Assembly (NCBI GenBank): GCA_019248485.1
Contig: JAEHGL010000001.1
Span: 11,446 to 75,445, forward strand
Reading direction: 5' to 3'
From: Candidatus Komeilibacteria bacterium S5_K13
GTDB taxonomy: Bacteria; Patescibacteriota; Patescibacteriia; UBA1558; S5-K13
Length of the DNA stretch: 64,000 nucleotides
A program made the translations under genes and the position numbers. Each line of letters opens with the position of its first letter. Position 1 is the first letter of the stretch. Shown one piece after another: positions 13,381 to 63,019 of the stretch. The notes below the pieces were generated by a model. It was given only the letters and a program-made list of their open reading frames with translations. It ran no database searches and was not told the DNA's origin.

Positions 13381-13424
13381 GAAACCGACCCTGAGGGTCG
13401 ACCTAAAAATCTGCTCTTGACGAT

Positions 13425-13455
13425 TATATTTATATGTGATAAAATGCTACATTAA
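13425..13455 (+). promoter_or_regulatory. Sigma70-like promoter (TTGACG -17- TAAAAT) upstream of the beta-barrel gene.
   Basis: TTGACGATTATATTTATATGTGATAAAATG, followed by a strong SD AGGGAGG 6 nt before the ATG at 13481. Confidence 0.5.
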
Positions 13456-13480
13456 ATAAAATCAATAAAGGGAGGATATC

Positions 13481-14452
13481 ATGAAAAAAATGATATTTAT
13501 CATCATGTCAGTCTGCCTATTCGCAGGTTTAGTGGCACAAACAACACCCACCACCTCACCCACATTTTATGGGAAACTAATGATGGGAACATGGTACAAT
13601 ACTGGAAATAGTACTTTTTCTGAGCAGATGTATTCCAACTCTCGTCTTGGTATCAGATGGAATAATGGACATTCTTATGACTTCATAGGGGAGATGGGAA
13701 TGAGTCCCAACGGTATTGTGTTAAGAAAACTGACATGCGTCATGAATATCTGGAATGGTTGCGATCTCAAAATTGGGAATGATTGGTTTAGTGGACTTGA
13801 TCAATGCACTAATGGAGCAACTGGCCCCACTTATACATCTGATAGCCCTACAGAATCTGGTCCTGCAGTAATTGCCAGAACACCACAGATAACATTGATA
13901 CACAATGATTTGTATCTTAGTTTTCTACCGGGTATAACGGTTAATCCAACCGGAACAGAGACAACAAAAAGCATTCCCAGACTGGCTGTCTCAAAAAAGG
14001 TTAAAATCTTAGACGTAAATTTTACTCCTGCATTATCCTATGGACATTACTGGGATAAACAAAATTCTTATAATGCCTGGGTGGTCTGTATCACAGCTAA
14101 AAGTAAAATTTTTGATTACGACATTACTACACAAGGATTTATAGCCAATAATTTTGGCGATTTGGGTGGATTAAGTATTGCTCAATCTAACGCAACTGCT
14201 ATTAATCAAAATATTCAATCAGGTGGTGCTTTTGCACAAATTAGATATCAAAACTTTTATGTAGGTGCTGGATATACCAAAAATAAAACAATGGAAACAG
14301 ACGCCGGTACCACGTTTTTCCAATATAACAAAACCATGTGGAAAAATGGAAACATTACATTAACACTAACTCCTGAAATGGGATTGTTCTTTGGAGATAA
14401 TGTCTCCAAAAACACTTTATATTTCGGAAGTAAGTGGACAGCCCAATTCTAA
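13481..14452 (+). CDS. Secreted protein resembling an outer-membrane beta-barrel/porin (C-terminal Phe, alternating hydrophobic strands). GC content is higher than its neighbours.
   Basis: Signal peptide MKKMIFIIMSVCLFAGLVAQ. C-terminus ...YFGSKWTAQF. Strong SD. ~40% GC. Confidence 0.5.
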   Translation: MKKMIFIIMSVCLFAGLVAQTTPTTSPTFYGKLMMGTWYNTGNSTFSEQMYSNSRLGIRWNNGHSYDFIGEMGMSPNGIVLRKLTCVMNIWNGCDLKIGNDWFSGLDQCTNGATGPTYTSDSPTESGPAVIARTPQITLIHNDLYLSFLPGITVNPTGTETTKSIPRLAVSKKVKILDVNFTPALSYGHYWDKQNSYNAWVVCITAKSKIFDYDITTQGFIANNFGDLGGLSIAQSNATAINQNIQSGGAFAQIRYQNFYVGAGYTKNKTMETDAGTTFFQYNKTMWKNGNITLTLTPEMGLFFGDNVSKNTLYFGSKWTAQF

Positions 14453-14475
14453 TCAAGCTGTTAATAAAACATAAA

Positions 14476-14500
14476 ACGGGCTCCATGAGTCCGTTTTTTT
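14476..14500. terminator. Bidirectional intrinsic terminator between the 13481 gene (+) and rnhA (-).
   Basis: AACGGGCTCCATGAGTCCGTTTTTTT, with an A-run on the other side. Confidence 0.55.
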
Positions 14501-17195: not shown

Positions 17196-18017
17196 CTAAT
17201 ATTTAACTTGTATCATTGAACCATCTTTATCAAGACGTATTCGCGCTGTAAGTTTTAATGGAAATAATTCTACGACAACGCCTTCTCCGTCTTTTGTTTT
17301 TACTTTATCTCCAATTTGAGGAAGTTTTAATATTAATTCTTGATAATTTTTTTCTTCATAAGCCAAACAGCACTTAAGTCTTCCGCACATTCCTGATAAC
17401 TTGTCTAAACCTCGATGAGCAATTTGCTGATCTCTTGCAAAGCCGGTATTAATACTTTCTAATCTTTTTAAAAATCTCTTGCAACAAAGCACTTGCCCGC
17501 AATCACCAATATCTCCACACAATTTTGCTTCATCTCTTACACCAAGTTGATATAGTCTGATTTTTTTCTTATATTTTTTGGACAGTTCTTTTACAAGTTC
17601 ACGAAAATCAACGCGACCATCAGCAATAAAAGAAAAAACCATAACACCTTCGTCATACGCAATATGAATGTCTGATAATTTCATATCAATATCATACTTT
17701 TTGACGATTTTTCTAGATTCTCTTAATATTTTTTTGTTATTGAGATTGTTCTTTTTTACAATATCAATATCTTCATCTGTTGCAACTCTTATAACTTTTT
17801 CTATTTTTTTCTGATCAAAATCTTCTGGAATATTATCAATTATTTCTATTACTTCTCCAATATCCTCACCAATTGATATGTCAAAAATATATTTACTTCC
17901 TTTTTTAAGTTGTAAATCATTATCCTTTGCCTCATCAAACAAAAAATATCTCTCTTCATCCCAACTTATAAATTTTATTATCGCTGTTTTTAACCCGTTA
18001 GATGTGTTGTTATCCAT
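17196..18017 (-). CDS. ricT: PSP1 C-terminal domain protein (RicT/YaaT family).
   Basis: CGDIGDCGQVLCCKRF...GMCGRLKCCLAYE is the conserved Cys-rich PSP1 core. Confidence 0.7.
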   Translation of the reverse strand: MDNNTSNGLKTAIIKFISWDEERYFLFDEAKDNDLQLKKGSKYIFDISIGEDIGEVIEIIDNIPEDFDQKKIEKVIRVATDEDIDIVKKNNLNNKKILRESRKIVKKYDIDMKLSDIHIAYDEGVMVFSFIADGRVDFRELVKELSKKYKKKIRLYQLGVRDEAKLCGDIGDCGQVLCCKRFLKRLESINTGFARDQQIAHRGLDKLSGMCGRLKCCLAYEEKNYQELILKLPQIGDKVKTKDGEGVVVELFPLKLTARIRLDKDGSMIQVKY

Positions 18018-23196: not shown

Positions 23197-23889
23197 TTAA
23201 GATATTTTCTTTTCAACCTCTTTAATAATGAGATCTGATATAGTTTCTCTAGATAAAATAGCCCCGTCTTCAACACAATTTATTGTAATCCATTCGCTAC
23301 CCTGTGATAATTGTTTATATACTTTATAAGATAGTTCCAAAAACTCCTTATTATTTTCATGAAGATCTCTTTTAGATCCACCAACATAATCCCTATTCCC
23401 CTTTTGATCTACCAAAAACTGCCCAATTACTGGCGGAACGTCTAATAAAAGATATAAGTCGGCCCTTGGTATTCCAAAAATATTGTATTCCAGATCTTCC
23501 AACCAATCAAAAAATTCTTGACGTTCTTTATAATCCTTTATCTTAGCACCTTGATAGCCGGCATTAGAAGATACATATCTATTTGATATAACAATTTTAC
23601 CAGAATTTATTGCCTCAATCATTTTACCCTTAACAGCAAAACGATCTACTGCATAAAAAGCAGATGCAGCACGAGGTCCAACATCATCAATCCCACCAAA
23701 ACGACCATTAAGATAATCTTCTACCATTGTACAAGATCTCTCTCCATATCTTGGAAAATCAAAAATTTCCACCCCAAATCCTCGATCTTCTAAGTTTTTT
23801 TTCAAAAGGTCTTGTTGAGTTTTTTTGCCACCACCATCGGTACCTTCAATTACAATAAAAATTCCTTTTTTCATTTTGCTTTCCTTCAT
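23197..23889 (-). CDS. tmk: Thymidylate kinase.
   Basis: GIFIVIEGTDGGGKKTQ P-loop plus DRY-like and lid regions. Confidence 0.8.
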   Translation of the reverse strand: MKESKMKKGIFIVIEGTDGGGKKTQQDLLKKNLEDRGFGVEIFDFPRYGERSCTMVEDYLNGRFGGIDDVGPRAASAFYAVDRFAVKGKMIEAINSGKIVISNRYVSSNAGYQGAKIKDYKERQEFFDWLEDLEYNIFGIPRADLYLLLDVPPVIGQFLVDQKGNRDYVGGSKRDLHENNKEFLELSYKVYKQLSQGSEWITINCVEDGAILSRETISDLIIKEVEKKIS

Positions 23890-23901
23890 TTATTTTAATA
23901 T

Positions 23902-24096
23902 TTATTCTTTATCTTCTTTATTGTCTATATTCTCTTCATTTTTAATATCTTGCGCGCTAGCCCAAATATCAGAAAACTCAAAAGATGTAGCATCATTTGT
24001 CTTTAGACTTTCATAAAAAAGGTCTAATCTCTTTCTCTGCTCTTCTGTAATACTATCCTCTCTTTTTATTGTTTTTGGTGTTTGATCTGAGTCCAT
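23902..24096 (-). CDS. Small acidic hypothetical protein (64 aa).
   Basis: ORF only. Confidence 0.3.
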   Translation of the reverse strand: MDSDQTPKTIKREDSITEEQRKRLDLFYESLKTNDATSFEFSDIWASAQDIKNEENIDNKEDKE

Positions 24097-24104
24097 ATAT
24101 TATA

Positions 24105-24356
24105 TTATTTAATTAATATTCCATCTTCTATTCGTTGTCTAAATTCTGCCTTAATAACTTCTATTTCTTCTGGTGTTTTACCCTTTATTCTATTTTGCCA
24201 CTCATCCCATGCCCTTTTAGAATCTGGATTAGTTGGAATATCTTGCTCATCAAAAGGTTTTCCAAGGTTATCTAAAAATTTAAGAGTTTCTTTATCTAAT
24301 TCTTCATCTAATTCTTTTTTTTGAGAAACATTGTTTAATCCGTTTTCAATGCTCAT
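24105..24356 (-). CDS. Small hypothetical protein (83 aa).
   Basis: ORF only. Confidence 0.3.
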   Translation of the reverse strand: MSIENGLNNVSQKKELDEELDKETLKFLDNLGKPFDEQDIPTNPDSKRAWDEWQNRIKGKTPEEIEVIKAEFRQRIEDGILIK

Positions 24357-28051: not shown

Positions 28052-28318
28052 CTAATAACCATTGTGAAAGCATTTATCAAAAATCATTTTATATGTATAT
28101 AAAGTCTGATTTTCGTCTCCAGCTTTCAACAGAAAATAAACATCACTTGCGGAGTTGTAAAAACACTCCGGAAACTCCCTAAAAAGCACATCTACCAAAT
28201 CTTCATAACATATTTGGTCAAATGAACTAATAACAGCGCATTTATGAACCAACTTTTGAAACTCTGGGTTAACATCTTGTAATTTAACCAATTCCTTGAT
28301 CTGAAATTGATTTAACAT
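28052..28318 (-). CDS. Small Cys-containing hypothetical protein, paralog A.
   Basis: Shares KCAV...EYPDCF...YFLL.G...Q.LYTY with the ORF at 28427-28711. Strong GGAGGA SD 5 nt upstream of the ATG. Confidence 0.4.
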   Translation of the reverse strand: MLNQFQIKELVKLQDVNPEFQKLVHKCAVISSFDQICYEDLVDVLFREFPECFYNSASDVYFLLKAGDENQTLYTYKMIFDKCFHNGY

Positions 28319-28426
28319 TATTATCCTCCATTTTTTAATATATCAAACGGAATATAGCAGGATTTTAAAAAAATGTCAAAAACAAAAAGGCCATTGTTTC
28401 TATGGCCTATAAATGATGTGGTTTTG

Positions 28427-28711
28427 CTATGCGGTTTTTTTGTCGCAAAGCTCTATCAATGTAAAATAGGTGTAAAGTTTTTGTGTATCTGCGCCCACTC
28501 TTAAAAGAAAATAGGCTTCTCGAAGACCCTTGCAAAAACAGTCTGGATATTCTTGTGACAGCACATAAGCAAGGTCGTGCCCGCTTATATCTTCAACACT
28601 ATCCAACACGGCACACTTGGTAACTGTCATGCCTCTGAAACAGCTATCATCAGCAATTTCCAATGTAATCTTGTCTTTGATCTTTTGATACGTAAGCATT
28701 GTATCCTCCAT
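28427..28711 (-). CDS. Small Cys-containing hypothetical protein, paralog B. The likely true start is the internal Met (MLTYQ...).
   Basis: Paralog of 28052-28318. Same conserved upstream block CTGCTATATTC-GTTT...AAAAAATGGAGGATA. Confidence 0.4.
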   Translation of the reverse strand: MEDTMLTYQKIKDKITLEIADDSCFRGMTVTKCAVLDSVEDISGHDLAYVLSQEYPDCFCKGLREAYFLLRVGADTQKLYTYFTLIELCDKKTA

Positions 28712-28773
28712 TTTTTTATTTTATTAAACAGAATATAGCAGACTTTATACTAATGGTCAAGTCCAAAAACAAA

Positions 28774-28802: not shown

Positions 28803-28817
28803 AAACATTTGAAATAT

Positions 28818-28850
28818 GTTATACACTAACCTTAAGTCCAGGTCCCATAA
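28818..28850 (-). repeat. Copy of the last 9 codons of rplA (would encode MGPGLKVSV-stop), with synonymous differences. Direct repeat with 29552-29583.
   Basis: ATACACTAACCTTAAGTCCAGGTCCCAT versus TTACACACTAACTTTAAGTCCAGGTCCCAT at the real rplA end. Confidence 0.75.
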
Positions 28851-28958
28851 TAAGTTATCCACAATTAACACTTGACATAATATTATATATATACTATTAT
28901 AATATATTCTCAATAGAGAATTTAGTAAATAAAATAATATTCTTTTCTGGAGGAAGAA

Positions 28959-29483
28959 ATGAAAACATTAGTTTTTATCATTGTCATTACCATTATTATG
29001 TTATCCACCGGCTGCAGTGAAAGAGAAGTCTTTTTCAACCTTTTTGGCTATATCGATGATTCATTCAATTGCTCAGGTATATTTATTAGTGCCTCAAAAG
29101 GATACTATGAAGCTTTTGGAGAAAATCCGACTTATGGTTGGGTCATAAATCATGCAGAACATGACTCATTAATCATAAAAACAGAATCATATCTATCTTT
29201 TGCTCGCAGATACAAAGAGGATTCATCAAAAGTATATTACCTTATTGTTAAAAGGGGCAAAGAAAAATGGAACGTACCAATAAATCCTGAGACAAGTCAG
29301 GTATTAGACCTAAATGCTTTTATAACAAAGAATTCAGATGTTGGGGTTACAAAACTACGTAATAGAATTAGATTTTACCTTGACAATAAGTCAAACATCC
29401 AATACATTTTGGACACAATAAATAAGTGTCCAGAAATAAAACAGACAAATATGGCAATCCCATGGAAACCTGGATTGCATTAA
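28959..29483 (+). CDS. Lipoprotein, hypothetical (174 aa).
   Basis: Signal peptide plus lipobox LSTGC. Strong SD GGAGGA. Own terminator. Confidence 0.55.
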   Translation: MKTLVFIIVITIIMLSTGCSEREVFFNLFGYIDDSFNCSGIFISASKGYYEAFGENPTYGWVINHAEHDSLIIKTESYLSFARRYKEDSSKVYYLIVKRGKEKWNVPINPETSQVLDLNAFITKNSDVGVTKLRNRIRFYLDNKSNIQYILDTINKCPEIKQTNMAIPWKPGLH

Positions 29484-29492
29484 TATCAAATT

Positions 29493-29530
29493 CAAAAAGC
29501 ACCTGCGTGTAATGCGCAGGTGCTTTTCTT
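29493..29530. terminator. Bidirectional intrinsic terminator (9-bp stem GCACCTGCG/CGCAGGTGC) serving both the lipoprotein gene (+) and rplA (-).
   Basis: AAAAAGCACCTGCGTGTAATGCGCAGGTGCTTTTCTTT. Confidence 0.8.
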
Positions 29531-29551
29531 TATAATAAGTATAAACAAATA

Positions 29552-30229
29552 TTACACACTAACTTTAAGTCCAGGTCCCATTGTTGAAGATATTGCGATA
29601 GTTCTTATATAAGTTCCTTTATATCCTGCTGGCTTTGCTTTTTTTACAGAATCAACAAATGTATTTATATTTTCTATAATTTTAGCTTCATCAAAACTAA
29701 CTTTTCCAACTGATAAATGAACATTTGCACTATCATCGTTCTTGAAGGTCTCTTTTCCTTTTTTAATTTCTTCAATCATTTTCTTTACGTCAGGAGAAAT
29801 TGTTCCACTTTTTGGATTTGGCATAAGACCTTTTTGACCAAGTATTTTTGCAATAACAGCGAGCTTTGGCATAATTTCAGGTGTTGCTACAGCTACATCA
29901 AAATCACATTTACCTGTTTTTTTGATCTCTGCCATAAACTCTTCGTCACCTATTATATCAGCTCCCGCTTCTTTTGCTTCTTTGGTATGAGTTGTAAAAG
30001 CGGCCACTCTTTTTGTCTTTCCATTTCCGTGTGGAAGAACAACTGTAGATCTTACAATTTGATCACCTTTTTTTGGATCAATTCCTAGAGCAACGTGCAC
30101 CTCTACAGAAGAATCAAATTTTACACTTGATGTTTCCTTCAAGATTTTTACAGCCTCTTCAAGAGAATAAACTTTTTTACTATCAACTTTTTCTCTTACT
30201 GCTTTCATTCTTTTTGACAATTTTGCCAT
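29552..30229 (-). CDS. rplA: 50S ribosomal protein L1.
   Basis: MAKLSKRMKAVREKVD...VALGIDPKKGDQ...GTYIRTIAISSTMGPGLKV. Confidence 0.9.
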   Translation of the reverse strand: MAKLSKRMKAVREKVDSKKVYSLEEAVKILKETSSVKFDSSVEVHVALGIDPKKGDQIVRSTVVLPHGNGKTKRVAAFTTHTKEAKEAGADIIGDEEFMAEIKKTGKCDFDVAVATPEIMPKLAVIAKILGQKGLMPNPKSGTISPDVKKMIEEIKKGKETFKNDDSANVHLSVGKVSFDEAKIIENINTFVDSVKKAKPAGYKGTYIRTIAISSTMGPGLKVSV

Positions 30230-46889: not shown

Positions 46890-48686
46890 ATGGAAATAAG
46901 AAATATAGCCATTATTGCTCATGTTGACCATGGCAAAACTACCATTACAGACGCTCTAATGAAGCAAACTGGTATGTCTACTGGTGAGACAAGTATGGAC
47001 AGCAATGACTTAGAGAAAGAAAGGGGTATTACAATATACTCAAAAAATACTTCGATTTACTACAAAGACACAAAAATAAATATTGTTGACACTCCTGGTC
47101 ATGCTGACTTTGGCTCTGAAGTAGAGAGAGTTCTTCGCTCCATAGACTCTGTTGTTCTTGTTGTCGATGCACAAGAGGGGCCAATGCCTCAGACAAAATT
47201 CGTATTAAAAAAATCACTAGACTTAGGACTAAAACCCATTGTTGTAATAAACAAAATTGACAAACCAGCAGCAAGTCCGAGCGATGTTAAAGAAATGGTA
47301 TATGAATTATTTCTAGATCTTGGCGCTGATGATGATCAGCTAGATTTTACTGCGATTTATGCTATAGCGCGCGACGGTGTTGCAAAAAAACATTTACACG
47401 AAGAAGCGCGAGATTTTTCTCCACTTTTAGATATCATCTTAGAAAAAGTTCCTGTCGCTTCCAGTCCTGAGCTTACAAACAAAGAGCTTCTTGTTCAACC
47501 ATTTAATCTAGGCTATGATAATTTCCTAGGACGCTTAGCAATATGTCGTATATATGAAGGAACAATAAATCAAGCCCAAACACTAGTTATCAAAAACTCA
47601 GAAGGAATTGCAAGGCGTGGAAAAATTACAAAATTATTTACCTTTGAAGGACTTATAAAAAAAGAAATTGAAAATGCTTCGGCGGGAGATATTGTAATGA
47701 TCGCAGGGCTTCCTGATATCTACATAGGCGAGACAATTTGTGAAAATGAAAATCAAAAATCGCTTCCAGCGATAAGTATTGATGAGCCTACAATTTGTCT
47801 AAACTTTTTAATAAACAATTCTCCGTTTGCAGGACGTGAAGGAAAATTTGTTACAAACAGACAACTCAAAGAAAGACTTGAAAAAGAATTAGAAATAAAC
47901 GTCGGGCTAAAAATTGATTTCTCATCCACTGAATCTTACAAAGTATTTGGCCGTGGTGAAATGCACATTGCGATTCTTTTAGAAAATTTAAGAAGGGAGG
48001 GCTACGAGCTTCAAGTTTCTCAACCCCATGTAATCATCAAAGAGATTGATGGTGAAAAACACGAACCATACGAAGAAGTTATTATTAATGTACCTCAAGA
48101 AATGAGCGGGGTTATTATCCAAAAGCTTTCAAAACGTCGTGGAACAATGATAGAAATGGAGCCAGAGCATGGAAATCTTAGAATGGTTTTTGAAGTTCCT
48201 ACTCGTGGACTTCTGGGCTACAAAAATGAGTTTGTTGTTGATACAAGGGGTGAGGGAATACTATATTCACGCGTAACGGGTTTTAAGCCATATGCTGGAA
48301 AAATAGACAAGACAGAGCTAGGATCAATGATTTCAATGGCAACTGGAAAAGCGCTTGGATTTTCACTTTATAATATACAGGAGCGTGGGACTCTTTATAT
48401 CAAGGCAAATACAGAAGTTTATGAAGGAATGGTTGTTGGAAATGTTGCAAAGGGAAATGATATGGTTGTAAATGTTATAAAAGGAAAACAGCTTACAAAT
48501 ATGAGATCTTCAAACGCTGATGAAGCAATAAAACTTACTACTCCTCTTGAGATAACTCTAGAGCGTGGAATGAGCATAATGAATGATGATGAATATCTTG
48601 AAATTACACCTCACAATATTAGGCTTAGAAAACAATATCTTACTGAAATTGAACGTACTAGATTTGGAAGAAAAAAAGAAAAATAA
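46890..48686 (+). CDS. typA: Translational GTPase TypA/BipA.
   Basis: IRNIAIIAHVDHGKTT G1, DTPGHADF G3 and NKIDK G4 motifs, plus the BipA C-terminal domain. Confidence 0.9.
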   Translation: MEIRNIAIIAHVDHGKTTITDALMKQTGMSTGETSMDSNDLEKERGITIYSKNTSIYYKDTKINIVDTPGHADFGSEVERVLRSIDSVVLVVDAQEGPMPQTKFVLKKSLDLGLKPIVVINKIDKPAASPSDVKEMVYELFLDLGADDDQLDFTAIYAIARDGVAKKHLHEEARDFSPLLDIILEKVPVASSPELTNKELLVQPFNLGYDNFLGRLAICRIYEGTINQAQTLVIKNSEGIARRGKITKLFTFEGLIKKEIENASAGDIVMIAGLPDIYIGETICENENQKSLPAISIDEPTICLNFLINNSPFAGREGKFVTNRQLKERLEKELEINVGLKIDFSSTESYKVFGRGEMHIAILLENLRREGYELQVSQPHVIIKEIDGEKHEPYEEVIINVPQEMSGVIIQKLSKRRGTMIEMEPEHGNLRMVFEVPTRGLLGYKNEFVVDTRGEGILYSRVTGFKPYAGKIDKTELGSMISMATGKALGFSLYNIQERGTLYIKANTEVYEGMVVGNVAKGNDMVVNVIKGKQLTNMRSSNADEAIKLTTPLEITLERGMSIMNDDEYLEITPHNIRLRKQYLTEIERTRFGRKKEK

Positions 48687-53200: not shown

Positions 53201-54211
53201 TTAAGGACACCTAGCAAATTCGCAATTTTCTCCTGCACGAGAGACATACGAACCATCTGGACATAATTTTGCCTCTAAGGTACATGCAATAGCGCTAGAT
53301 CCAGTTGCAAATACAATAGGAATTTCAAGCGCATCATCGTTTTTGGGCAGTCCTGATGGATTGTCTTTTTTTAGAATTAAGGCTCCTCTATTACTATATA
53401 CATTTTTATCTAATATAAAATTAAGGGTTGCTTCAAATGGAACAAATTCATTTGTCATCCAATCACTCTTTGCATTTGCAATCCCTTGAGATATTATTCT
53501 ACCATCCCAATCAACCAGAAATACCGGAAAACTTGCTTCAAAGAACCGAGATCCTCTTGCACTTCCCTTAATGCTTAGCGGGCTAATAATAATCTGATTT
53601 GGCAGTGGATTTTCAAGCTTAATAAGATTTATTTTCTCTAATACGTTACCAACATCTTCTACAAAATTTTTATCGCCATATTTGCATTGTCTTGGATATG
53701 ATTCCATTACTGGACTTCCTGTAGAAACACAATCTTCAAAATTATTTACAGCTTTTGACCAAACAATATTTGTAATTTCTGGAATTTGCAACAAATTCAC
53801 CTCTACTTGAGGCTTGCAATAACACATAACTATTGATACTCCTGCCCACCCATCAAATTCTGGAATATAAACAGTTCCATCTTTTTCTGTAATATCAAGC
53901 TGATTCATAACGCTATTGCACGCTCCTGTTGTTGCTACATTTATTGTTTCTTTTATTATGTCTAGCTTTGTTGGATTCATTTCTCTAGTGCTAATTGACT
54001 TTGAAATAATGATTGTTTTTTGATATCCCACACTATCCATATTTTCACCATTACAATACTTTGTAGTATCTTCACTAGACATAAGATAATTAATTGTATT
54101 TATAGGGACAATAACTTCTTCCGTGGTTGATTGATTCAAGGTTTCATAAATCCCAAATACAGTTATTAGTGAAATAACTATAAATAATGATATGTATATT
54201 TTTTTACTCAT
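53201..54211 (-). CDS. Secreted protein, possibly with GerMN/Gmad2-like Ig domains and a Cys-rich C-terminus.
   Basis: Signal/TM N-terminus. SD AAGGAG upstream. GC content higher than the genome average. Confidence 0.35.
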   Translation of the reverse strand: MSKKIYISLFIVISLITVFGIYETLNQSTTEEVIVPINTINYLMSSEDTTKYCNGENMDSVGYQKTIIISKSISTREMNPTKLDIIKETINVATTGACNSVMNQLDITEKDGTVYIPEFDGWAGVSIVMCYCKPQVEVNLLQIPEITNIVWSKAVNNFEDCVSTGSPVMESYPRQCKYGDKNFVEDVGNVLEKINLIKLENPLPNQIIISPLSIKGSARGSRFFEASFPVFLVDWDGRIISQGIANAKSDWMTNEFVPFEATLNFILDKNVYSNRGALILKKDNPSGLPKNDDALEIPIVFATGSSAIACTLEAKLCPDGSYVSRAGENCEFARCP

Positions 54212-54316
54212 ACATTAATCTTACTCCTTTTAAAGAAATAAAGCACCTAATACATGTTGACAAACTCACATATGAATGGTAATCTGTCATATTAATAAAA
54301 ATCCATGGAGGATAAA

Positions 54317-55165
54317 ATGAAACAAGAGCAATTAGTCGGCCGATTACCCCTTACAAATAGTGGGGAATTACAAACTTTCTTCTTTGGCGTTGGATCTGCT
54401 AGTGCGATCAAACATTTCCAAAACAACTTTGTTATAATCAAGGGAAATCAACATATATCTGTTGACCTTGGAAACAAATCTCAGCTTGCCCTTGAACATA
54501 TAGCTGGGCTCAAGATGACAGATATTGAATTCTTTTTACCCACCCATTCACATGCTGATCATGTGGGTGGAATTGAAACCTTTGCTTTGGATAGTAGATA
54601 CGTAGGCATTCCTCGTTTAGGAAAGGAAAAACCAAGCGTCATTATCACAGAGGAATATCAAAGAATTCTTTGGGATGATACCTTGCGTGGAGGAATTTGT
54701 TTCAATGAAAGAGAAGAAGAAAATAAAAGGAATCTCTGCTTTGGAGATTATTTCAATGTTATTAGGCCGATTTGGAAACAAAAACAACCCAGAGAAATTT
54801 GGGAGCTTGATTTAGGTGGAATACACTTGGAAATTTTCCGGACCAAGCACGTTCCAGACAGTGCTGAAACCTGGGAAACATCCTTTGTTAGCTATGGCCT
54901 ATTTGTTGACGGGCATGTATTTATTTCCTGCGACACCAGGTTCGACATTGATCTGATAAACATGTATGCGAGTAGATCTTCAGTCATGTTTCACGATGTT
55001 CAATTCTTCAATGGTGGTGTACACGCATCCCTTGATGAATTGAGAACTCTTCCAGCGGAAATCAAGGCAAAAATGTACCTTATGCACTATGGCGACAACT
55101 GGGAGACTCAAGATATCACCGGATTTGCCGGACTGGCTCAACAAGGCGTTATTTATACGCCCTAA
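54317..55165 (+). CDS. MBL-fold metallo-hydrolase.
   Basis: LPTHSHADHVGG (HxHxDH) motif. SD GGAGGA. The track start at 54305 is in frame, but the ATG at 54317 has better SD spacing. Confidence 0.75.
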   Translation: MKQEQLVGRLPLTNSGELQTFFFGVGSASAIKHFQNNFVIIKGNQHISVDLGNKSQLALEHIAGLKMTDIEFFLPTHSHADHVGGIETFALDSRYVGIPRLGKEKPSVIITEEYQRILWDDTLRGGICFNEREEENKRNLCFGDYFNVIRPIWKQKQPREIWELDLGGIHLEIFRTKHVPDSAETWETSFVSYGLFVDGHVFISCDTRFDIDLINMYASRSSVMFHDVQFFNGGVHASLDELRTLPAEIKAKMYLMHYGDNWETQDITGFAGLAQQGVIYTP

Positions 55166-55182
55166 ACCAGACCAAAAACAAT

Positions 55183-55219
55183 AATCCTCGTCACAAAAAT
55201 GTAGCGAGGATTTTTTATT
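55183..55219 (+). terminator. Intrinsic terminator after the MBL gene.
   Basis: AATCCTCG...CGAGGATT stem plus TTTTTTATTT. Confidence 0.55.
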
Positions 55220-55338
55220 TAAAATATACTTAAAAATAAAAAACAAACGAATCAATTAAATCAATTAACATGAAAATAATAATTTAGTCTCGTCTTATCA
55301 GGTCTAATCACGCAATACAATTAAAATCATTATATTCA

Positions 55339-56253
55339 TTAAAATAAATATTGAATAATAAGTCCCGTAACTACACTAACCACAAATAACAAGCCGATCA
55401 CCTTAAAAATATCTTTTTTATTTTTGTCTTCTCGAAACAAAACCAAAATTCCCAAGCCACCACTAGCACACAATCCAGAGATTATAGAACCATAAGAGAT
55501 TACGCCATTAATATATAATTGCGTTATAACAACCGATGCAGCGCAATTAGGAATTAATCCTATTAGAGCAGCTATAAATGGTTGCCAAAAGCTATTGACC
55601 AAAAATAAATTAGCAAAATTTTCTTCACCAATATAAAAAATACTAAAATTTATAAACAAAGTTGCTATCAATATAAATATAAAAATTTTAAACGTATGAA
55701 TTAGTGGATGAAAAAATATTTCTTTGTAACTAAATTTTTTAGCTGATGCATTAATACAATGCCCACAACAAGCTATTTTTTCAACAATAGACTCATGATG
55801 ATGACTGCTATCGTCATTTCCTTTATTATAAATATCAATATGGGCTAATATTTTTTTATTAGATTTTTTAAAAATCAAATCGACAGCATATCCCGCTACT
55901 AGAGCTATGAAAATTTTTGTTAAAATAATTGGCAATATCAGACTAGTTTTATCTGGATAAGACAAAATAACTGGAATTGCCTCATCAGAAGTTGATAATA
56001 AAACCGCTAAAAAAGTGCCTATGGTTACTAATTTCTGGGTATATAAAGCTGCTGTCACTACTGAAAAACCACACTGCGGAAAACTTCCAACCAAAGCTCC
56101 TAATGCTGGACCAGCATAGCCCGCTTTTTGAATTTTTTCTTTTATTAGATTGCCAAATTTATATTCAATTATTTCGATGATTATATAAACAAACAATAAA
56201 AAGGGGATCATTTTTATTGTATCAATAAGGGCGTCTAAAAATATTTCTTGCAT
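55339..56253 (-). CDS. Polytopic permease with a His/Cys-rich loop (DDSSHHHESIVEKIACCGHC), putative metal transporter (ArsP_2/DUF2899-like).
   Basis: About ten TM helices, a GPALGALVGSFPQCGFS motif and an HHH/CCGHC cluster. Confidence 0.4.
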   Translation of the reverse strand: MQEIFLDALIDTIKMIPFLLFVYIIIEIIEYKFGNLIKEKIQKAGYAGPALGALVGSFPQCGFSVVTAALYTQKLVTIGTFLAVLLSTSDEAIPVILSYPDKTSLILPIILTKIFIALVAGYAVDLIFKKSNKKILAHIDIYNKGNDDSSHHHESIVEKIACCGHCINASAKKFSYKEIFFHPLIHTFKIFIFILIATLFINFSIFYIGEENFANLFLVNSFWQPFIAALIGLIPNCAASVVITQLYINGVISYGSIISGLCASGGLGILVLFREDKNKKDIFKVIGLLFVVSVVTGLIIQYLF

Positions 56254-56466
56254 AAATATTATTCTCTAAAAATAAAAATTATACATTTATTTTCGCATAA
56301 TTTATACAAAAAGACAATAATAAAAAACATTACTCCTTCGGCAATGTTCTTTGGTAGTTCCATATAGTTCGGGACGTTAGAACTATTATCCAACAACAAA
56401 ATGAATATATTCATATTCCTAGTTTAAAATATAGCTGATTTATAACTTATCCTACTACCCTACTCA

Positions 56467-57669
56467 CTATTGTTTTCTTAGTTTTTCTTTACTTATAAAA
56501 TTTACTGCCAAAAAAGTGGCGATAGGAACAGCTAAAATAATTCCAATACTACCAGTCAAAGCTCTAACTATTTCTGTAGCCATCATTTCATTATCTATGA
56601 CCTGATTAAATGTCAAAAATGGCTCTTGTTTAACACTAAATAAAATTAAAAGTGGTAAAGATGCTCCAGCATAAGCCAAAAACAAAGTATTTATCATTGA
56701 GCTTAGATGCGAGACTCCAACGCGCATAGCTTGTTTATAAATTTGATTTTTTGACAATTCTGAATTTGATATTTTTAATTCTTTGACTAGAGCTACTTGA
56801 GAAATTATCACATCGTCTAATACGCCTAATGCACCAATAATAATACCCGCCAATAATAGACCCTTAATATTTATATTTCCTCCAGCAAGTCCAACTAAAT
56901 AAGTTGCCTCTTCGCTAGCAAAACCCGTCAATTTTGTTATTGATGAAAACCAAATAGATAATAATCCAGTAATTATTAAAGAAATTAGAATAGAAAAAAT
57001 AGAAATTGTTGATGTTCTTTTAAGCCCCTCTGTAATATAAACACCAAAAACTAAAATAAATAATGAGCCAACTATTGTAATAAAGAGTGGGTCTGCTCCA
57101 GATAATATTTTTGGAATAATAAATTTTAAAATAACTAAAAATGTTAACAATAACACAACTAAAGCTCGAGCACCTTTAAATCTACCTATAATTACCACAG
57201 TCAAAATAAATAATAAAACTAGCCAATATATACTACTAGTTCTAGAAAACCCTATAACATAAAAACTCTCACCACCGCTCGGTTCAACGCTATAATGAAC
57301 CAAAACCTTATCTCCAACCTTATATTCACTAGCAGATGAAACGTCATATTCTGTTCCATTAAAAAATACCTCCTTATTTCTCCAACCATCTTCAAGTCCT
57401 ATAAGTTTTAATTTTTGTTGAATTGAAATTGAACCATCATCACGTAGTATGCTGTTATTTTCAATTACCTCTACAACTCTAGCTTTAAAAATTTCTTCTA
57501 CACTATTAATTTGTAAATCTATTTCTTGAGGCGCAGCTTCTTCTGACACAATTTCTTCGTTAAGATTGTTGGAATTTTCTTCTTGTGCATTTGCAAAATT
57601 TACAGTTTGAAATAAACCAAATAAAGTAATTGGGAATAAAATAAAAAATAATAATAATTTAATTTTCAT
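56467..57669 (-). CDS. YibE/F-family membrane protein.
   Basis: Signal peptide, extracellular N-domain, then eight TM helices with GVLDDVIISQVA-type motifs. Confidence 0.45.
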   Translation of the reverse strand: MKIKLLLFFILFPITLFGLFQTVNFANAQEENSNNLNEEIVSEEAAPQEIDLQINSVEEIFKARVVEVIENNSILRDDGSISIQQKLKLIGLEDGWRNKEVFFNGTEYDVSSASEYKVGDKVLVHYSVEPSGGESFYVIGFSRTSSIYWLVLLFILTVVIIGRFKGARALVVLLLTFLVILKFIIPKILSGADPLFITIVGSLFILVFGVYITEGLKRTSTISIFSILISLIITGLLSIWFSSITKLTGFASEEATYLVGLAGGNINIKGLLLAGIIIGALGVLDDVIISQVALVKELKISNSELSKNQIYKQAMRVGVSHLSSMINTLFLAYAGASLPLLILFSVKQEPFLTFNQVIDNEMMATEIVRALTGSIGIILAVPIATFLAVNFISKEKLRKQ

Positions 57670-57683
57670 AATACAAATCGGCT

Positions 57684-57959
57684 CTAATTAATTATTTTAA
57701 TTGCCTTTCCGTTTATTAACGCATCTGCTATTTTTTTATAAGCTGAATAAAGTATTCTCTGATATGTGCTTGTTGATGTATGCATTTTTTTTGCAGCCTC
57801 TTGTTGCTCCAAGTCATTTGCATGACGCAAACGATAAGCCTCTATTTCCTCTATAGTAAGCTCGACAGTCTCAAGATTCCTCATAGGAATTCCTTGGGGT
57901 TTAAAATAGGTAACATTTGGATTAAACTCTATTTTTCTACAAAGTCTTGGTCTTGGCAT
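57684..57959 (-). CDS. DUF134 (UPF0251) putative DNA-binding protein.
   Basis: MPRPRLCRKI...YFKPQGIP...EIEAYRL signature. Confidence 0.65.
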   Translation of the reverse strand: MPRPRLCRKIEFNPNVTYFKPQGIPMRNLETVELTIEEIEAYRLRHANDLEQQEAAKKMHTSTSTYQRILYSAYKKIADALINGKAIKIIN

Positions 57960-58114
57960 ATTATTTTATTTGCAATAATACTTAATGTATCTTTGGCTTT
58001 TATTATATTATTAAATTCAAATATTGAAAAGTCATAATAAATCTGATATTCTTTTTATAAAGAAGGTGCTTCGGCTCTCCGTCTTTAATGAAGAGCCGTT
58101 TCCAGTGCCTTCTT

Positions 58115-58348
58115 TTATTTTTGGTCTTTTAGAGCTTCTTTTTCTGATTTTATGATTTCTAATTGTTCTAAAAGCATTTTCTCTTCATTTTCTAATGCTT
58201 GTAATTCGTTTTTGGGAGAAATAAATCTTCTAAATCCAAACCCATTTCTACAACCATAACCCATTCCATTCCCATTTCCGCAACGACCCATTCCACGACC
58301 AGTCATTGGACCTTCACCCATTGGGCCTGTTCCATTTTTATTTGGCAT
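58115..58348 (-). CDS. DUF5320-family small protein.
   Basis: Gly/Met-rich NGTGPMGEGPMTGRGMGRCGNGNGMGYG plus a C-terminal coiled coil. Adjacent to DUF134. Confidence 0.6.
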   Translation of the reverse strand: MPNKNGTGPMGEGPMTGRGMGRCGNGNGMGYGCRNGFGFRRFISPKNELQALENEEKMLLEQLEIIKSEKEALKDQK

Positions 58349-58508
58349 ATATTTGTCCTTTCTTTAATTTTTTATATTTTGGCAATTCGATCTTTATATA
58401 TTACCTATTATGAGTATACGCCCATAACTATTAAATGTCAAATCATAATCATTTGACTTTTATAACACTTATATTCATAATAAATAAATAATCGATTAAT
58501 ATAACCAT

Positions 58509-58937
58509 ATGAAAAAAGGAATCATTGTACATACCATCGTTTTTAATTCAAATAAAGAAATCTTATTAATAAAAAGATCTAGTGCCGAAACTACTTTACC
58601 TGGATACTGGGATATTCCTGGCGGGACACTTGAAGACGGCGAAGATCCAACAAATGGTGCAATTAGAGAAACACTGGAAGAAACTGGCATAAAAATAGAT
58701 AGGCCGAGTTTGTTTTTCTATACATCAAATATAGATACTCAAAAAAATAAACAATTTATTCTTATGATATTTATAACCCAAACCTTTAACTCACAAGTTA
58801 TATTAAACAAAGATGATCATGAAGATTATAAATGGATAGATATAAATGATCCACTTCAACTTAGTGTAGTTTTCTATATTAAAGATTGTTTTAAACTATT
58901 GAGGTCTAAAAAACATAAGTTATTAAAATTTATATAA
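58509..58937 (+). CDS. NUDIX hydrolase.
   Basis: Nudix box GGTLEDGEDPTNGAIRETLEETGI. Confidence 0.75.
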   Translation: MKKGIIVHTIVFNSNKEILLIKRSSAETTLPGYWDIPGGTLEDGEDPTNGAIRETLEETGIKIDRPSLFFYTSNIDTQKNKQFILMIFITQTFNSQVILNKDDHEDYKWIDINDPLQLSVVFYIKDCFKLLRSKKHKLLKFI

Positions 58938-58946
58938 TCGCTTAAA

Positions 58947-58995
58947 CGTTTTTTAAAACAAAAAGACGTCTTGATATAAAACGTCTCTTATGCTC
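58947..58995. repeat. 49-bp direct repeat A (Bro-N gene 3' end plus terminator hairpin AGACGT...ACGTCT). Its mate lies at 61120-61168, with one mismatch.
   Basis: AAAACAAAAAGACGTCTTGATATAAAACGTCTCTTATGCTCTAATATGT. Confidence 0.8.
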
Positions 58996-59866
58996 TAATA
59001 TGTGATTCATTACTATTTTGAAAAACCTTTTTTAACTTTTTTTGCTTTGATAATCTTTTAAAATTGTTTTTACTCACTATCGGCTTACCAGTTTTTTGTT
59101 CCAATTCTAAACGAGCATTTTTCGCAACATGTCCACCTTTTTTTGCGGGAATTTTATTATCTTCTACTCCTTTTGTTTCCATTGTTTCTGCAATTTGGCG
59201 TGTAGAAAGTTCTGCTAAAGCTGTAAAAACTAGCTCGGCATCTGTCATGTGATCTCGTAAATTTTCTTGACGCAAATCTTTTAAGCTCTTGTGTTCTTTT
59301 ATTGTAAGATCACTCCATTCTTTATGAATAATATTTGTCAAAATAGCATACTCCTCTTTTTTTCTTACTTCATTATCCTTCCAATAATCAGTCAATTTAT
59401 TGCGAATTTCTTGTCCCATCATTCTCTGTTGTATCCATTTTTTATCTCGTCCCATTTTCTGCCAATATTCACAACTTCTATCTAAAGCTCTTTCTGGATC
59501 ATTCATTTCTTGCACTCTTTCATAACCAACTTTTGCTAACCATAATTTAATAGGTTCAGCCTTTTTGCTTGGAATAGATTGAATAAGGCGCAAAATTGTT
59601 TCTACGTCAGCAACATCTGTTTTATAAAATTTACCATCTGCGGACAAAAGTTTCAGTTTGTCACATTTTGTGACAGACTCATTTCCCTCTCTTTTTAAAC
59701 GATTTTTAAGAGTTGCCCAATAACTTTGTGCTTTTTTGAAATCTATTTGCTCAATTAAAATAGCAACGATATCAATTACTGAAAAATACCATGTCTCAGT
59801 CTTTTCATCATAATATCGACGAATTTTGTGAGTTTTAAAAATAGCAATGTTTTTATTTTTTTTCAT
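58988..59866 (-). CDS. Bro-N domain protein with a DinD-like (DNA-damage-inducible protein D) C-terminal region.
   Basis: The N-terminal IAIFKTHKIRRYYDEKTETWYFSVIDIVAIL resembles Bro-N. The C-terminal FTALAELSTRQIAE...KKGGHVAKNARLELEQKTGKPIVS is DinD-like. Confidence 0.55.
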   Translation of the reverse strand: MKKNKNIAIFKTHKIRRYYDEKTETWYFSVIDIVAILIEQIDFKKAQSYWATLKNRLKREGNESVTKCDKLKLLSADGKFYKTDVADVETILRLIQSIPSKKAEPIKLWLAKVGYERVQEMNDPERALDRSCEYWQKMGRDKKWIQQRMMGQEIRNKLTDYWKDNEVRKKEEYAILTNIIHKEWSDLTIKEHKSLKDLRQENLRDHMTDAELVFTALAELSTRQIAETMETKGVEDNKIPAKKGGHVAKNARLELEQKTGKPIVSKNNFKRLSKQKKLKKVFQNSNESHIRA

Positions 59867-59949
59867 ATATTCTCTGTCCCTTTGAATAACCGGACAGTAA
59901 TTATATTATAACTTAATCTTGCCATAATTCATTCTAGAAATCAATTGAA

Positions 59950-60537
59950 TTAATTTTCATTCTCTTTGCTCCAAAAATCTACGTCTTCCCCATCTTCATG
60001 AATACTATCAAAAAAATCTGCTGGCATGTCTTTATATTTACTCTTTAAAATTATTGCCTCAGCCTCGCTTATCCATAATTTCTCATATTCAACCTTACCC
60101 TCTAATCGCTCTAATCTATTTTTAACTAAAACATAATAATCTTCACTAAAATTATATTTCCATTCTTCTAATTTCTTTGGATCTTTTATATTATTCATAA
60201 TTCTATTATGTAATTCTCTATCTAAATCTAATTCTTCCAACGCTGTTGCTGCAGCATTAATCTTGATCATTTTTTGATATAATTGATCTTCTCTTATTCT
60301 AAACATTTTAGCCAAACGAAAATCTTTTTCTTCATTTTCACTATCAGCAGAATAATAAAAAAATTCTGCTTCTTCAAGTGCTAGTTTAGCAAAATCTTGT
60401 AATTCTTTATCTTTGCTAGTTTTAATAAAGTTTTTTATTTGTTGAATAGATTGCTTCGTCCCCTCATGAGCCCAACCAATAAGTTAAGCCTTATCATCTG
60501 ATTCTCCCATGTTTTTTAAAAATTGTTTTTTTGTCAT
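59950..60537 (-). pseudogene. Hypothetical gene with an in-frame TAA (at 60484-60486) separating a 17-codon N-terminal piece from a 179-codon continuation. Probable nonsense-disrupted gene.
   Basis: Minus frame reads MTKKQFLKNMGESDDKA-stop-LIGWAHEGTKQSIQQIKNFIKTSKDKELQDFAKLALEEAEFFYYSADSENEEKDFRLAKMFRIRED... The track ORF starts at a TTG at 60315. Confidence 0.4.
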
Positions 60538-60584
60538 ATTATTTTTTAATAATTAAATTACACCATTTAAAAATATCGTTATTT

Positions 60585-60914
60585 TTAATTATCAAAAATA
60601 GCAACATCTCCCTTATCATATTCTCCGATTTCAAAACCATCATATTTAAAATTATCTCCGTTTTGATAAAAAAATAAGGATACTTGTTGATTAAGCACCA
60701 AAATAAAACCTCGCTCATTGATACTAGTAGAAAAAATATCAATTTTCTCAGATGTAGAAAAAATTTTATGTAATTTATGAAAATCTATACTTGTCTTTGT
60801 TTCTTTTGTCGTAAACTTAAATATAGATTGTGGCCAAAGTTTAAACAATACTTTTTGCCATAAAGATAATTTCAAAGCTTCTAGACCATTTTCTTTTAAA
60901 AATTCTTTGTTCAT
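60585..60914 (-). CDS. Hypothetical protein (109 aa).
   Basis: ORF only. Confidence 0.3.
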   Translation of the reverse strand: MNKEFLKENGLEALKLSLWQKVLFKLWPQSIFKFTTKETKTSIDFHKLHKIFSTSEKIDIFSTSINERGFILVLNQQVSLFFYQNGDNFKYDGFEIGEYDKGDVAIFDN

Positions 60915-61638: not shown

Positions 61639-62841
61639 ATGAAAAATTCATTAAAACAATCCCCTAATCAATTTGGTTATTTCGGTAAATATGGTGGACA
61701 AATTATTCCACCAACATTAATACCAATATTCGATGATATAGCTAAGGCATACAAAATTGCTCAAGCTGATCCTGATTTCCAAACAGAATATCAAAATCTA
61801 TTAAAAAATTATGTTGGTAGACCATCACCGTTATATTACGCCAAAAACTTATCAGAGAAATTAGGTGAAGCAAAAATATATTTAAAACGTGAAGATTTAA
61901 ATCACACCGGCGCACATAAGATAAATCATACTCTTGGTGAAGCATTACTTGCTAAGAGAATGGGCAAGACTAAACTACTAGCAGAAACTGGTGCAGGACA
62001 ACATGGCGTAGCACTAGCTACAGCAACTGCACTTGTAGGAATAGAATGTGAAATTCACATGGGTGAAATTGATGTCTTAAAACAACATCCAAATGTTATT
62101 CGCATGCAACTACTGGGTGCAAAAGTTGTAACTGTAAAATCGGGCGGACGCTCACTAAAAGATGCTGTCGATAGCGCCTTTGATGCTTTTGTAAAAGATC
62201 CAAAAAATATATTCTTTGGTATTGGCTCAATAGTTGGGCCACATCCATTTCCTATGATGGTTAGAGATTTTCAATCTATTATTGGCAAAGAAGCGAAAGT
62301 TCAAATTTTAGAACAAGAAGGCAGATTACCGGATTATTTAATTGCCTGTGTTGGTGGTGGTTCAAATGCGATTGGCTTATTCCATGAATTCTTAGATGAT
62401 GAGAGCGTAAAAATGATAGGAGTTGAACCCAGTGGAAGAAGTTTCAATCATGGAGACAATGCAGCGACTCTAACACTAGGTAAACCTGGAAATATTCATG
62501 GAATGTTTACTTATTTACTACAAGATGATAACGGAGAACCGTTACCAGTTCACTCTATTGCTTCAGGATTAGATTATCCAGGAGTTGGACCAATTCATTC
62601 TGATTTAAAAGATTCAGGAAGAGTAACATATGAATCAATAAATGATGTAGAAGCGCTAGATGCTTTCCAAACTCTAACTAAATTAGAAGGTATTATTCCC
62701 GCACTAGAAAGTTCGCACGCATTAGCACATGCATTTAAAATTGCACCTAGTATGAGTTCTGACAAAATCATTATTATTAACTTATCTGGTAGAGGTGATA
62801 AAGACATTGATTATGTTGCAGAAAAGTTAGGTTATAAGTAA
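61639..62841 (+). CDS. trpB: Tryptophan synthase beta chain (standalone; no trpA in the window).
   Basis: [35 protein letters not shown] (PLP Lys), GAGQHGVA and GGGSNAIG motifs. Confidence 0.9.
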
Positions 62842-62945: not shown

Positions 62946-63019
62946 TGGAGGTCACGATCGGAATCGAACCGACGATGAGAGTTTTGCAGACTCCTGCCTT
63001 ACCACTTGGCTACGTGACC
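62946..63019 (-). tRNA. tRNA-Cys (anticodon GCA). CCA is encoded and the discriminator is U73.
   Basis: Manual fold. Acceptor stem GGTCACG/CGTGACC (7 bp), U8A9, D-loop with GG, anticodon stem GGAGT/ACTCT, loop CTGCAAA, T-arm GTCGG-TTCGATT-CCGAT, and 3' TCCA. Confidence 0.8.

Follow-up and report, generated by a model that had tools for sequence, protein, structure and literature searches.

Genes led by a Shine-Dalgarno motif are rich in GC3 and mostly variable between sister species in a Patescibacteria genome stretch whose other genes lack the motif

The five Shine-Dalgarno-led genes and their cassettes

We analyzed a stretch of 64,000 nucleotides from Candidatus Komeilibacteria bacterium S5_K13 (assembly GCA_019248485.1, contig JAEHGL010000001.1, positions 11,446 to 75,445; hereafter the window, meaning this whole stretch) with respect to genes led by a Shine-Dalgarno (SD) motif. 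All coordinates refer to the window, which has a GC content of 31% and carries most of its genes on the minus strand. By NCBI lineage it belongs to the Parcubacteria group within the Patescibacteria group, and the closest named relative was a Candidatus Buchananbacteria genome. Using Pfam, two mreB genes, greA, PBP2, mreC, an rseP-like gene, frr, pyrH, tsf, rpsB, rpmE, prfA and prmC were confirmed, furthermore tmk, thyX, dut, rplA (uL1 is thus encoded in this genome), rplK, nusG, secE and a gene for a TrpB-like pyridoxal-phosphate-dependent (PALP) enzyme at 61639-62841.

For the SD screen, all GGAGG and AGGAG occurrences on both strands plus the 25 nt upstream of every open reading frame (ORF) were inspected. 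Exactly 5 of the approximately 63 credible genes carried a GGAGG core 5-6 nt from the ATG, with the full motif GGAGGA at a distance of 4-5 nt. These genes start at 13481 (GGGAGGAtatcATG), 28959 (TGGAGGAagaaATG) and 54317 (TGGAGGAtaaaATG) on the plus strand and at 28699 (TGGAGGAtacaATG, the true start of the 28427 ORF) and 28318 (TGGAGGAtaataATG) on the minus strand. Based on the window-wide frequency of GGAGG, only 0.13 correctly placed motifs were expected (Poisson P = 2.8e-7). For two of the genes the longest ORF opens a few codons upstream, inside the motif (54305 versus 54317 and 28711 versus 28699); the public annotation of the 54317 protein takes the SD-associated ATG as start (282 aa). 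The remaining approximately 58 genes of the window showed A/T-rich leaders and no SD. An earlier note on this DNA had described the core genes as devoid of a GGAGG-type SD, and this was found true for rpsB, tsf, rpmE, prfA, both mreB genes, frr, pyrH, rplA, rplK, nusG, secE, the gene of the TrpB-like enzyme and typA, the latter gene being confirmed by its TypA relatives.

Comparing the GC content at third codon positions (GC3), values of 0.29-0.40 were obtained for all five SD-led genes versus 0.14-0.27 for all 58 others. This separation is complete (Mann-Whitney U at its maximum, p = 1.2e-4). The whole-gene GC content was visibly raised in three of the five (0.37, 0.40 and 0.40). Ribosomal protein genes had the lowest GC3 (0.16-0.19), and the excess of the SD-led genes therefore does not reflect expression-linked codon bias. 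The predicted folding of the mRNA from -30 to +30 and from +1 to +45 did not differ between SD-led and SD-less genes (p = 0.21 and 0.16; n = 5 SD genes). A role of the SD in compensating for structured start regions thus found no support in this small sample.

The same note had listed a sixth gene with a strong SD 5-8 nt from the ATG. Its list stands for 13481, 28959, 54317 and the two small paralogs starting at 28699 and 28318, but has to be corrected for 53201-54211, the minus-strand partner of the divergent pair with 54317-55165. This gene encodes a Gmad2 Ig-like-domain protein of 336 aa with an N-terminal membrane anchor (PF10648, E 1e-9). Its upstream AAGGAG (54224-54229) is separated from the ATG by 12 nt, its GC3 of 0.20 is typical of the genome, and its ortholog in the sister locus L003 encodes an 82% identical protein behind an identical leader. 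It is a resident gene outside the SD class. The AAGGAG sits at the optimal distance of 8 nt from an out-of-frame ATG on the minus strand (54215-54213), which opens an ORF of three codons (ATG TAT GAG TAA) overlapping the real start of the Gmad2 gene. As the equivalent frame in L003 spans about 22 codons, a conserved upstream ORF is unlikely here.

Upstream of all five SD-led genes, a TTGAC-type -35 element, a 17-nt spacer and a TAnnnT -10 element were found by consensus match 31-58 nt before the ATG. TTGAC occurred within 100 nt upstream of 5/5 SD-led genes versus 8/62 others (Fisher p = 1.3e-4). A GC-rich hairpin followed by a T-run, again identified by consensus match, lies 3' of each of the five ORFs. 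With its own promoter and its own terminator, each is predicted to form a monocistronic unit of promoter, leader, SD, ORF and terminator.

The first of these cassettes (13417-14500, plus strand) consists of the promoter TTGACG-17-TAAAAT (13417-13445), the SD GGGAGGA (13470-13476), the coding sequence 13481-14452 and a terminator (14474-14500). Its product of 323 aa has a signal-peptide-like N-terminus and a C-terminal Phe, and is a strict orphan that matched only itself among 5.8 billion proteins. A single-sequence AF2 model was unusable (pLDDT 30.7), so that the earlier label as a beta-barrel protein was neither confirmed nor rejected. The lipoprotein cassette (28816-29581, plus strand) is enclosed by 33-nt direct repeats (28816-28848 and 29549-29581, repeat family D2), between which a promoter (28872-28900), the SD GGAGGA (28949-28954), the coding sequence 28959-29483 (174 aa, lipobox ...STGC) and a terminator (29495-29527) follow each other. 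Its protein likewise matched only itself among the 5.8 billion proteins and is a strict orphan. On the minus strand, two small-protein cassettes lie in tandem. Cassette A (28427-28760) carries the promoter TTGACC-17-TATATT (28732-28760), the SD GGAGGA (28704-28709) and the coding sequence 28427-28699 (90 aa); its paralog, cassette B (28052-28379), carries TTGACA-17-TATATT (28351-28379), GGAGGA (28324-28329) and 28052-28318 (88 aa). The family had 7 representatives among 1.84 billion cluster representatives. The two proteins are 38% identical and the coding DNA has diverged far more than the 75 nt upstream with promoter and SD, which are about 85% identical. The expression signals are thus kept by selection in this genome, an argument for the SD being read by the ribosome and against a decaying relic.

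The fifth gene (54317-55165, plus strand; 282 aa, GC 0.40, GC3 0.37) encodes a predicted phosphodiesterase of the Apyc1 family, a group of cyclic-nucleotide phosphodiesterases with a metallo-beta-lactamase (MBL) fold. Its SD GGAGGA was read in the sequence at 54307-54312, with the GGAGG core 5 nt from the ATG. A promoter-like TTGACA-17-TAATCT (54257-54285, consensus match) lies 31 nt upstream of the ATG, and the terminator (55175-55220) is formed by a hairpin (inverted repeat I1) and a subsequent T-run, TTTTTTATTT. The four other SD-led genes had no match in Pfam, PHROGs or NCBIfam.

Variation between sister species and across the clade

Relatives were ordered by their TypA protein (46890-48686 in the window), which is 97% and 91% identical to those of two metagenome-assembled genomes and 96% identical, in a partial match, to that of a third. 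The identity was 80% to the Candidatus Buchananbacteria genome and 69-77% to Falkow-, Komeili-, Morani-, Kerfeld- and Magasanikbacteria. Many relatives are TPA metagenome-assembled genomes (L003, L004, L006 and others) with TypA 72-97% identical and, in the closest, conserved synteny; they are titled 'uncultured Gammaproteobacteria bacterium' or 'uncultured Candidatus Saccharibacteria'. Such record titles are unreliable as taxonomy, 'uncultured Gammaproteobacteria' being an evident placeholder. The sister and congener loci compared with the window were L003, L169 (TypA 97%), L170 and L171 (TypA 96%), syntenic DNA of congeners being reached via cluster members. They cover 13.4-54.3 kb of the window, and the following counts refer to this range.

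In genomes with TypA 96-97% identical, 4 of 5 SD-led genes were absent or replaced versus 4 of 38 SD-less genes (Fisher p = 0.0026). Thus, the proposal of the earlier note that SD and GC mark horizontally acquired genes holds insofar as the marker picks flexible genes; direct structural support for acquisition was obtained for one cassette only, that of the lipoprotein. There, L169 carries a lipoprotein only 27% identical to the product of 28959-29483, framed by a promoter, leader and terminator that are about 96% identical. The similarity ends within about 15 nt of the ATG and resumes right after the stop codon. In both species the cassette is flanked by the 33-nt repeats (30/33 identical), which copy the last 9 codons and the stop codon of rplA. 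This duplication of the rplA end is the insertion signature of the lipoprotein cassette. In L171 the entire 13481 cassette is missing (about 1.1 kb, from after the terminator of a neighboring RNA gene, described below, to just before the stop codon of rnhA), and the RNA gene abuts rnhA where the cassette sits in the window. Between its dCMP deaminase gene and rplA, L169 carries an island with a single small paralog, whose identity to 28427-28699 is 83%. This L169/L170 ortholog keeps the SD and has a GC3 of 0.37. For 28052-28318 no counterpart was found in the sister genomes. Finally, the Apyc1-like gene is missing in L003 beside the conserved Gmad2 gene.

For the Apyc1-type gene the comparison was carried beyond the sister species. 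Its neighbors in the window are the Gmad2 gene, ArsP_2, YibE_F and DUF134; in four other loci they are housekeeping or pilus genes. In these five loci with five different neighborhoods, no phage, defense, Pycsar or cyclase genes were found next to it. Six Patescibacteria-type loci showed an SD 5-mer upstream of an Apyc1 homolog (at least 55% identity), with neighbors almost all SD-less. GC3 of the homologs with at least 55% identity was equal to or above that of the flanking ORFs in 12/12 loci, with an excess of at least 0.07 in 8/12. In a 12.8-kb locus of the Buchananbacteria relative, the two SD-led genes are the two GC-richest, and one of them is the Apyc1 homolog. Only one genome was found to hold both a TypA (80%) and an Apyc1 (about 60%) relative. 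The contrast is sharper than in the window at L085 (1937-2776; GC3 0.74 versus 0.23 in flanking ORFs) and L167 (6001-6855; 0.71 versus about 0.47).

The pattern was then compared for a clade set of 55 related Patescibacteria loci plus the window with 934 ORFs, where a canonical SD 5-mer at 3-10 nt spacing defined an SD-led ORF. A total of 69 ORFs (7%) were SD-led. No homolog in any other locus was found for 77% of them versus 46% of the other ORFs (Fisher p = 7e-7). In permutations within loci, performed without the window, SD-led ORFs were less conserved (mean percentile 0.36, p < 2e-4), shorter (p = 0.002) and higher in GC3 (mean percentile 0.59, p = 0.003, a modest effect). Hence, the association of SD, GC and accessory genes proposed for the window recurs in the 55 related loci. 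Signal- or anchor-like N-termini were predicted for 17% of SD-led versus 16% of SD-less ORFs across the clade, and secretion was dismissed as a common theme.

Upstream of 830 ORFs of the clade, SD 5-mers are enriched about ten-fold between positions -14 and -9 relative to the start, and the form used is the canonical (A)AGGAG(G) with spacers of 5-8 nt. In the same 830 ORFs, whose upstream regions were pooled from the window and loci L003-L082, the 3' ends of TATAAT-like hexamers cluster 7 nt before the ATG (56 versus a background of about 20), which suggests that a fraction of the native genes of the clade is transcribed leaderless, e.g., recJ (15045-16763) and the PSP1 gene (17196-18017). An anti-SD was detected in only 48% of Parcubacteria, and the missing cases overlap with lineages lacking uL1 (PMC9297842). 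The presence of uL1 in this genome is consistent with a retained anti-SD.

Two SD-less regions of the window also differ from the sister genomes. For the tmk block (23197-24356; tmk and ORFs of 64 and 83 aa) no counterpart was found there at E <= 1e-3. The sister genomes hold a different Thymidylate_kin gene of 252 aa at this site, i.e., the locus is replaced, with ordinary GC3 and no SD. Next to the sister Gmad2 gene, nothing corresponds to the block 55339-60914, whose genes are SD-less with ordinary GC3. Within this block, 58988-59866 (minus strand) encodes a protein of 292 aa with a sub-threshold Bro-N domain (24.0 bits versus a cut-off of 25.6), a domain typical of phage and mobile-element proteins, and lies 3 kb from tRNA-Cys (62946-63019, minus strand).

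Interpretation of the SD-led genes

From the observed motif statistics, GC3 separation, cassette anatomy, presence and replacement patterns, repeat signature and clade association we infer the use of the SD by the ribosome, an outside origin of the genes and the direction of the insertion and deletion events. The reading that we favor, and consider probable though far from certain, is that the SD-led genes are autonomous cassettes of the flexible genome in an SD-poor lineage, with a GC3 stemming from imported or exchanged DNA. About 92% of the genes would initiate without an SD, from A/T-rich leaders or partly from leaderless transcripts. The ribosome would still read SD sites, as suggested by the positional peak in the clade and by the conservation of the motif across diverged paralogs and orthologs. 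The five SD-led genes would represent 'moron-like' units with a full-consensus sigma-70 type promoter, a leader of about 25-50 nt, GGAGGA, one ORF and a terminator. Their variation places them in the flexible genome: the 13481 cassette differs in presence between congeners, the small paralogs occur in tandem in only one species, the lipoprotein ORF has been swapped between sister species inside its repeat flanks, and the Apyc1-type gene lacks a conserved neighborhood and does not occur at this site in the sister species. The high GC3 would most likely stem from imported or pan-genomically exchanged DNA whose composition has not been erased. A horizontal origin of the SD-led genes is likely. 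It is plausible for the 13481 cassette, given the insertion/deletion difference between congeners and its orphan status, and also for the Apyc1-type gene, given the lack of synteny and the recurrent GC excess.

We are aware of several points that weigh against this reading. Variable genes without SD and with ordinary GC3 exist in the window (tmk at 23197-23889, two small ORFs and ORF 48583), which makes the SD a specific but not a sensitive marker. Flanking repeats above shuffled controls were not found at the 13481, Apyc1 and small-protein cassettes, and the Pfam annotation of the window contains neither an integrase nor a transposase. The GC3 effect across the clade is modest, as stated, and gene starts in the related loci came from a simple ORF heuristic. 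A 16S rRNA was found neither in the window nor in the 168 related loci searched. A donor or phylogenetic discordance was not demonstrated, because four of the SD-led genes are essentially without homologs. The gene 28427-28699 is vertically shared with a GC3 of 0.37-0.40, so the excess outlasts simple decay to host composition. The Apyc1-type gene keeps SD and GC excess in many hosts, which could reflect a gene-specific requirement instead of repeated transfer. The SD is selected in place and hence not merely a relic of the donor, which speaks against a simple model of fresh import. Moreover, high GC alone is no marker of acquisition, since a conserved candidate structured RNA occupies the GC-richest part of the window (12.0-13.4 kb).

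Alternatively, SD and raised GC3 might define a special expression class with strong, conditional or ribosome-state-dependent translation, to which the accessory link would be secondary. The conservation of SD and promoter between diverged paralogs and sister species would fit such a class, as would the retention of the SD by the Apyc1-type gene across many hosts with SD-less neighbors and the precedent of rare, regulated SD genes in Bacteroidia (PMC9976891, PMC13000453). However, the SD-led genes share no common function and four of them are essentially orphans, native genes with high expression lack both an SD and a raised GC3, and the folding of the start region is alike in SD-led and SD-less genes (p = 0.2). 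As the patterns of presence, absence and replacement are also not predicted by a special expression class, we regard it as unlikely, though as the most serious competitor. Still less probable is that the GC3 excess arose by local GC-biased gene conversion at recombining loci, with the SD accompanying monocistronic leadered transcripts and no GC-richer donor involved. GC-biased gene conversion in bacteria is the general hypothesis underlying this explanation. The lipoprotein ORF was indeed exchanged by recombination within conserved flanks and the GC3 excess persists in both sister species, but the variable tmk block (23197-24356) and ORF 48583 show no rise in GC3, leadered native genes with TTGACA promoters (typA and the DEAD-box helicase) have no SD, and the orphan status is left unexplained. 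It is hardly credible that purine runs arising by chance, or artefacts in choosing the start codon, account for the motifs. Although the longest ORF begins upstream of the SD-associated ATG in the two genes named above, five motifs stand against 0.13 expected, all five genes share the same GGAGGA at a uniform distance within AT-rich leaders (22-32% GC), a sister genome conserves the motif, and the public annotation uses the 282-aa start.

The cassette reading could be extended to a bolder version, to which we give little credence. SD and anti-SD might be kept mainly as an expression adaptor of the flexible genome; cassettes would be housed in fixed slots, each at the 3' end of a core gene (as at rplA with its 33-nt att-like repeats), and SD-ORF modules would be exchanged between species without a recognizable integrase, perhaps gated by the state of the ribosome as in Bacteroidia.

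The pattern extends known ideas on SD-poor lineages, compositional outliers and autonomous cassettes, and is no new mechanism. According to Lawrence and Ochman, atypical GC3 and codon usage reportedly mark recent transfers and then decay toward host composition. As with such compositional markers, GC3 outliers of the window coincide with genes variable between close relatives; in contrast to them, a translation signal co-varies and the excess GC3 survives speciation in at least one gene. The phage 'morons' of Hendrix and colleagues are said to be single ORFs, each equipped with a promoter and a terminator of its own and deviant in composition. The SD cassettes resemble them as units of promoter, SD, ORF and terminator placed between unrelated genes and unlike their neighbors in composition, but they lie between core chromosomal genes (rplA, rnhA and others), outside a prophage. 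No phage genes were found adjacent to the SD cassettes, and PHROGs gave no specific match.

In Bacteroidia, initiation is SD-independent, rpsU and the frameshift site of prfB are rare cases with an SD, and the anti-SD is sequestered by bS21, bS18 and bS6 (PMC9976891, PMC13000453). The genome analyzed here is similar in being nearly SD-free, with few genes carrying SD-type motifs and A/T-rich leaders in place of the SD; however, the rare SD genes of Bacteroidia are regulatory core genes, while those described here are accessory or orphan cassettes. No rpsU was found in the window, and Parcubacteria often lack bS21 (PMC9297842). Weakened SD-based initiation in the same broad lineage was described by Tsurumaki et al. 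(2022, PMC9297842). They studied the rRNA, whereas our analysis asks which genes keep the SD. Parcubacteria without anti-SD overlap with those lacking uL1 in their data; this genome encodes uL1 and shows positional and evolutionary signs of SD use. In the literature, no earlier report was found that ties the presence of an SD to the origin of genes in the candidate phyla radiation. If the pattern holds genome-wide, a canonical SD together with raised GC3 would serve to recognize genes of recent gain or exchange in metagenome assemblies of Parcubacteria type, which would be useful where orphans dominate and phylogenetic transfer tests usually fail. It also raises the questions of why SD reading persists where core genes are translated without SD, and of whether dependence on the SD aids or restricts the expression of incoming genes.

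The Apyc1-family protein and a candidate structured RNA

The protein of 54317-55165, of which an identical copy is found on contig JAEHHI010000005.1 of GCA_019248045.1, matched PF23023 over residues 18-264 with 94.3 bits (gathering cut-off 50; E 1e-26). Using a profile of 30 sequences of its family, the Apyc1 structures 7T28, 7U2S and 7U2R were found at E values of 1e-37 to 1e-41, while the next MBL protein in the same search reached only 7e-8. The best Foldseek matches of an AF2 model (pLDDT 91.8) were again Apyc1 (TM 0.85-0.90, E 1e-19 to 1e-21, about 31% identity), with YhfI (E 1e-11) and RNase Z well behind. H77, H79, D81, H82, H178, D206 and H257, which include the HxHxDH motif, were invariant in the 30 homologs, and the stretch around the metal motif reads THSHADHVGG. 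By sequence and modeled fold, the product is therefore assigned to the Apyc1 family of MBL-fold cyclic-nucleotide phosphodiesterases, with the enzymatic activity as a prediction.

The likeness to the family (Hobbs et al., 2022, PMC9117128; Tesson et al., 2024, PMC11724313) extends over the full-length sequence, the fold and the HxHxDH site. Bacterial Apyc1 genes are mostly located on the chromosome, with a probable role in regulating cyclic-nucleotide pools, and like more than 80% of them the 54317 gene stands alone on the chromosome (PMC9117128, PMC11724313). Differences are that its protein is about 30% identical to the characterized Apyc1 enzymes and about 30 residues longer. Variants of Apyc1 with different loop lengths differ in activity (PMC11724313). 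In PHROGs only one match was found, a generic metal-dependent hydrolase, and the non-phage neighborhoods in the five loci examined speak against a location of the gene in a phage, prophage or anti-defense island. More than 1000 homologs share 55-66% identity; few are source-named, mostly from Patescibacteria and some from other phyla. With this annotation, Patescibacteria and their more than 1000 close homologs would join the hosts of chromosomal Apyc1-type cyclic-nucleotide phosphodiesterases.

Upstream of the 13481 cassette, positions 11990-13380 of the plus strand make a strong candidate for a large, so far undescribed structured RNA (roughly 1.1-1.4 kb), with 40-58% GC in a genome of 31% GC. 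A promoter TTGACA-17-TATGTT with TG extension (11957-11985) precedes it and a terminator (approximately 13345-13378) ends it. The stretch at 12.0-13.4 kb contains no called gene and had no Rfam match even at E <= 1. A recoded or degraded gene was rejected, as each of the six frames contains all three stop codons. The predicted folding of the stretch is far more stable than that of shuffled controls (z down to -6.3). L171 conserves it in three modules (5', middle and 3') that surround a variable center. In the two best-conserved modules with 127 predicted pairs, 7 double compensatory and 6 wobble-compatible single changes were observed and no pair was disrupted. Several G-U pairs assign transcription to the plus strand. 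In 1.86 Mb of related loci, a covariance model of the 3' module found nothing beyond the two sequences used to train it.

A 22-nt exact match was observed between the 3' module (13185-13206) and the coding region of a 411-aa ORF in two related IMG/VR viral contigs of 49% GC (L174 4042-4063 and L175 995-1016), without similarity beyond the 22 nt. It could be due to chance, as about 1-3 hits were expected in the 18-mer scan, or reflect a spacer-like relationship. No other matches of the RNA to viral contigs were found in the IMG/VR scans. Finally, two tandem copies of a 16-nt palindromic unit, CATCACCTCAGAGGTG, lie at 11904-11935, between a DNA polymerase III delta-prime-like gene (10851-11861) and the promoter of the RNA.

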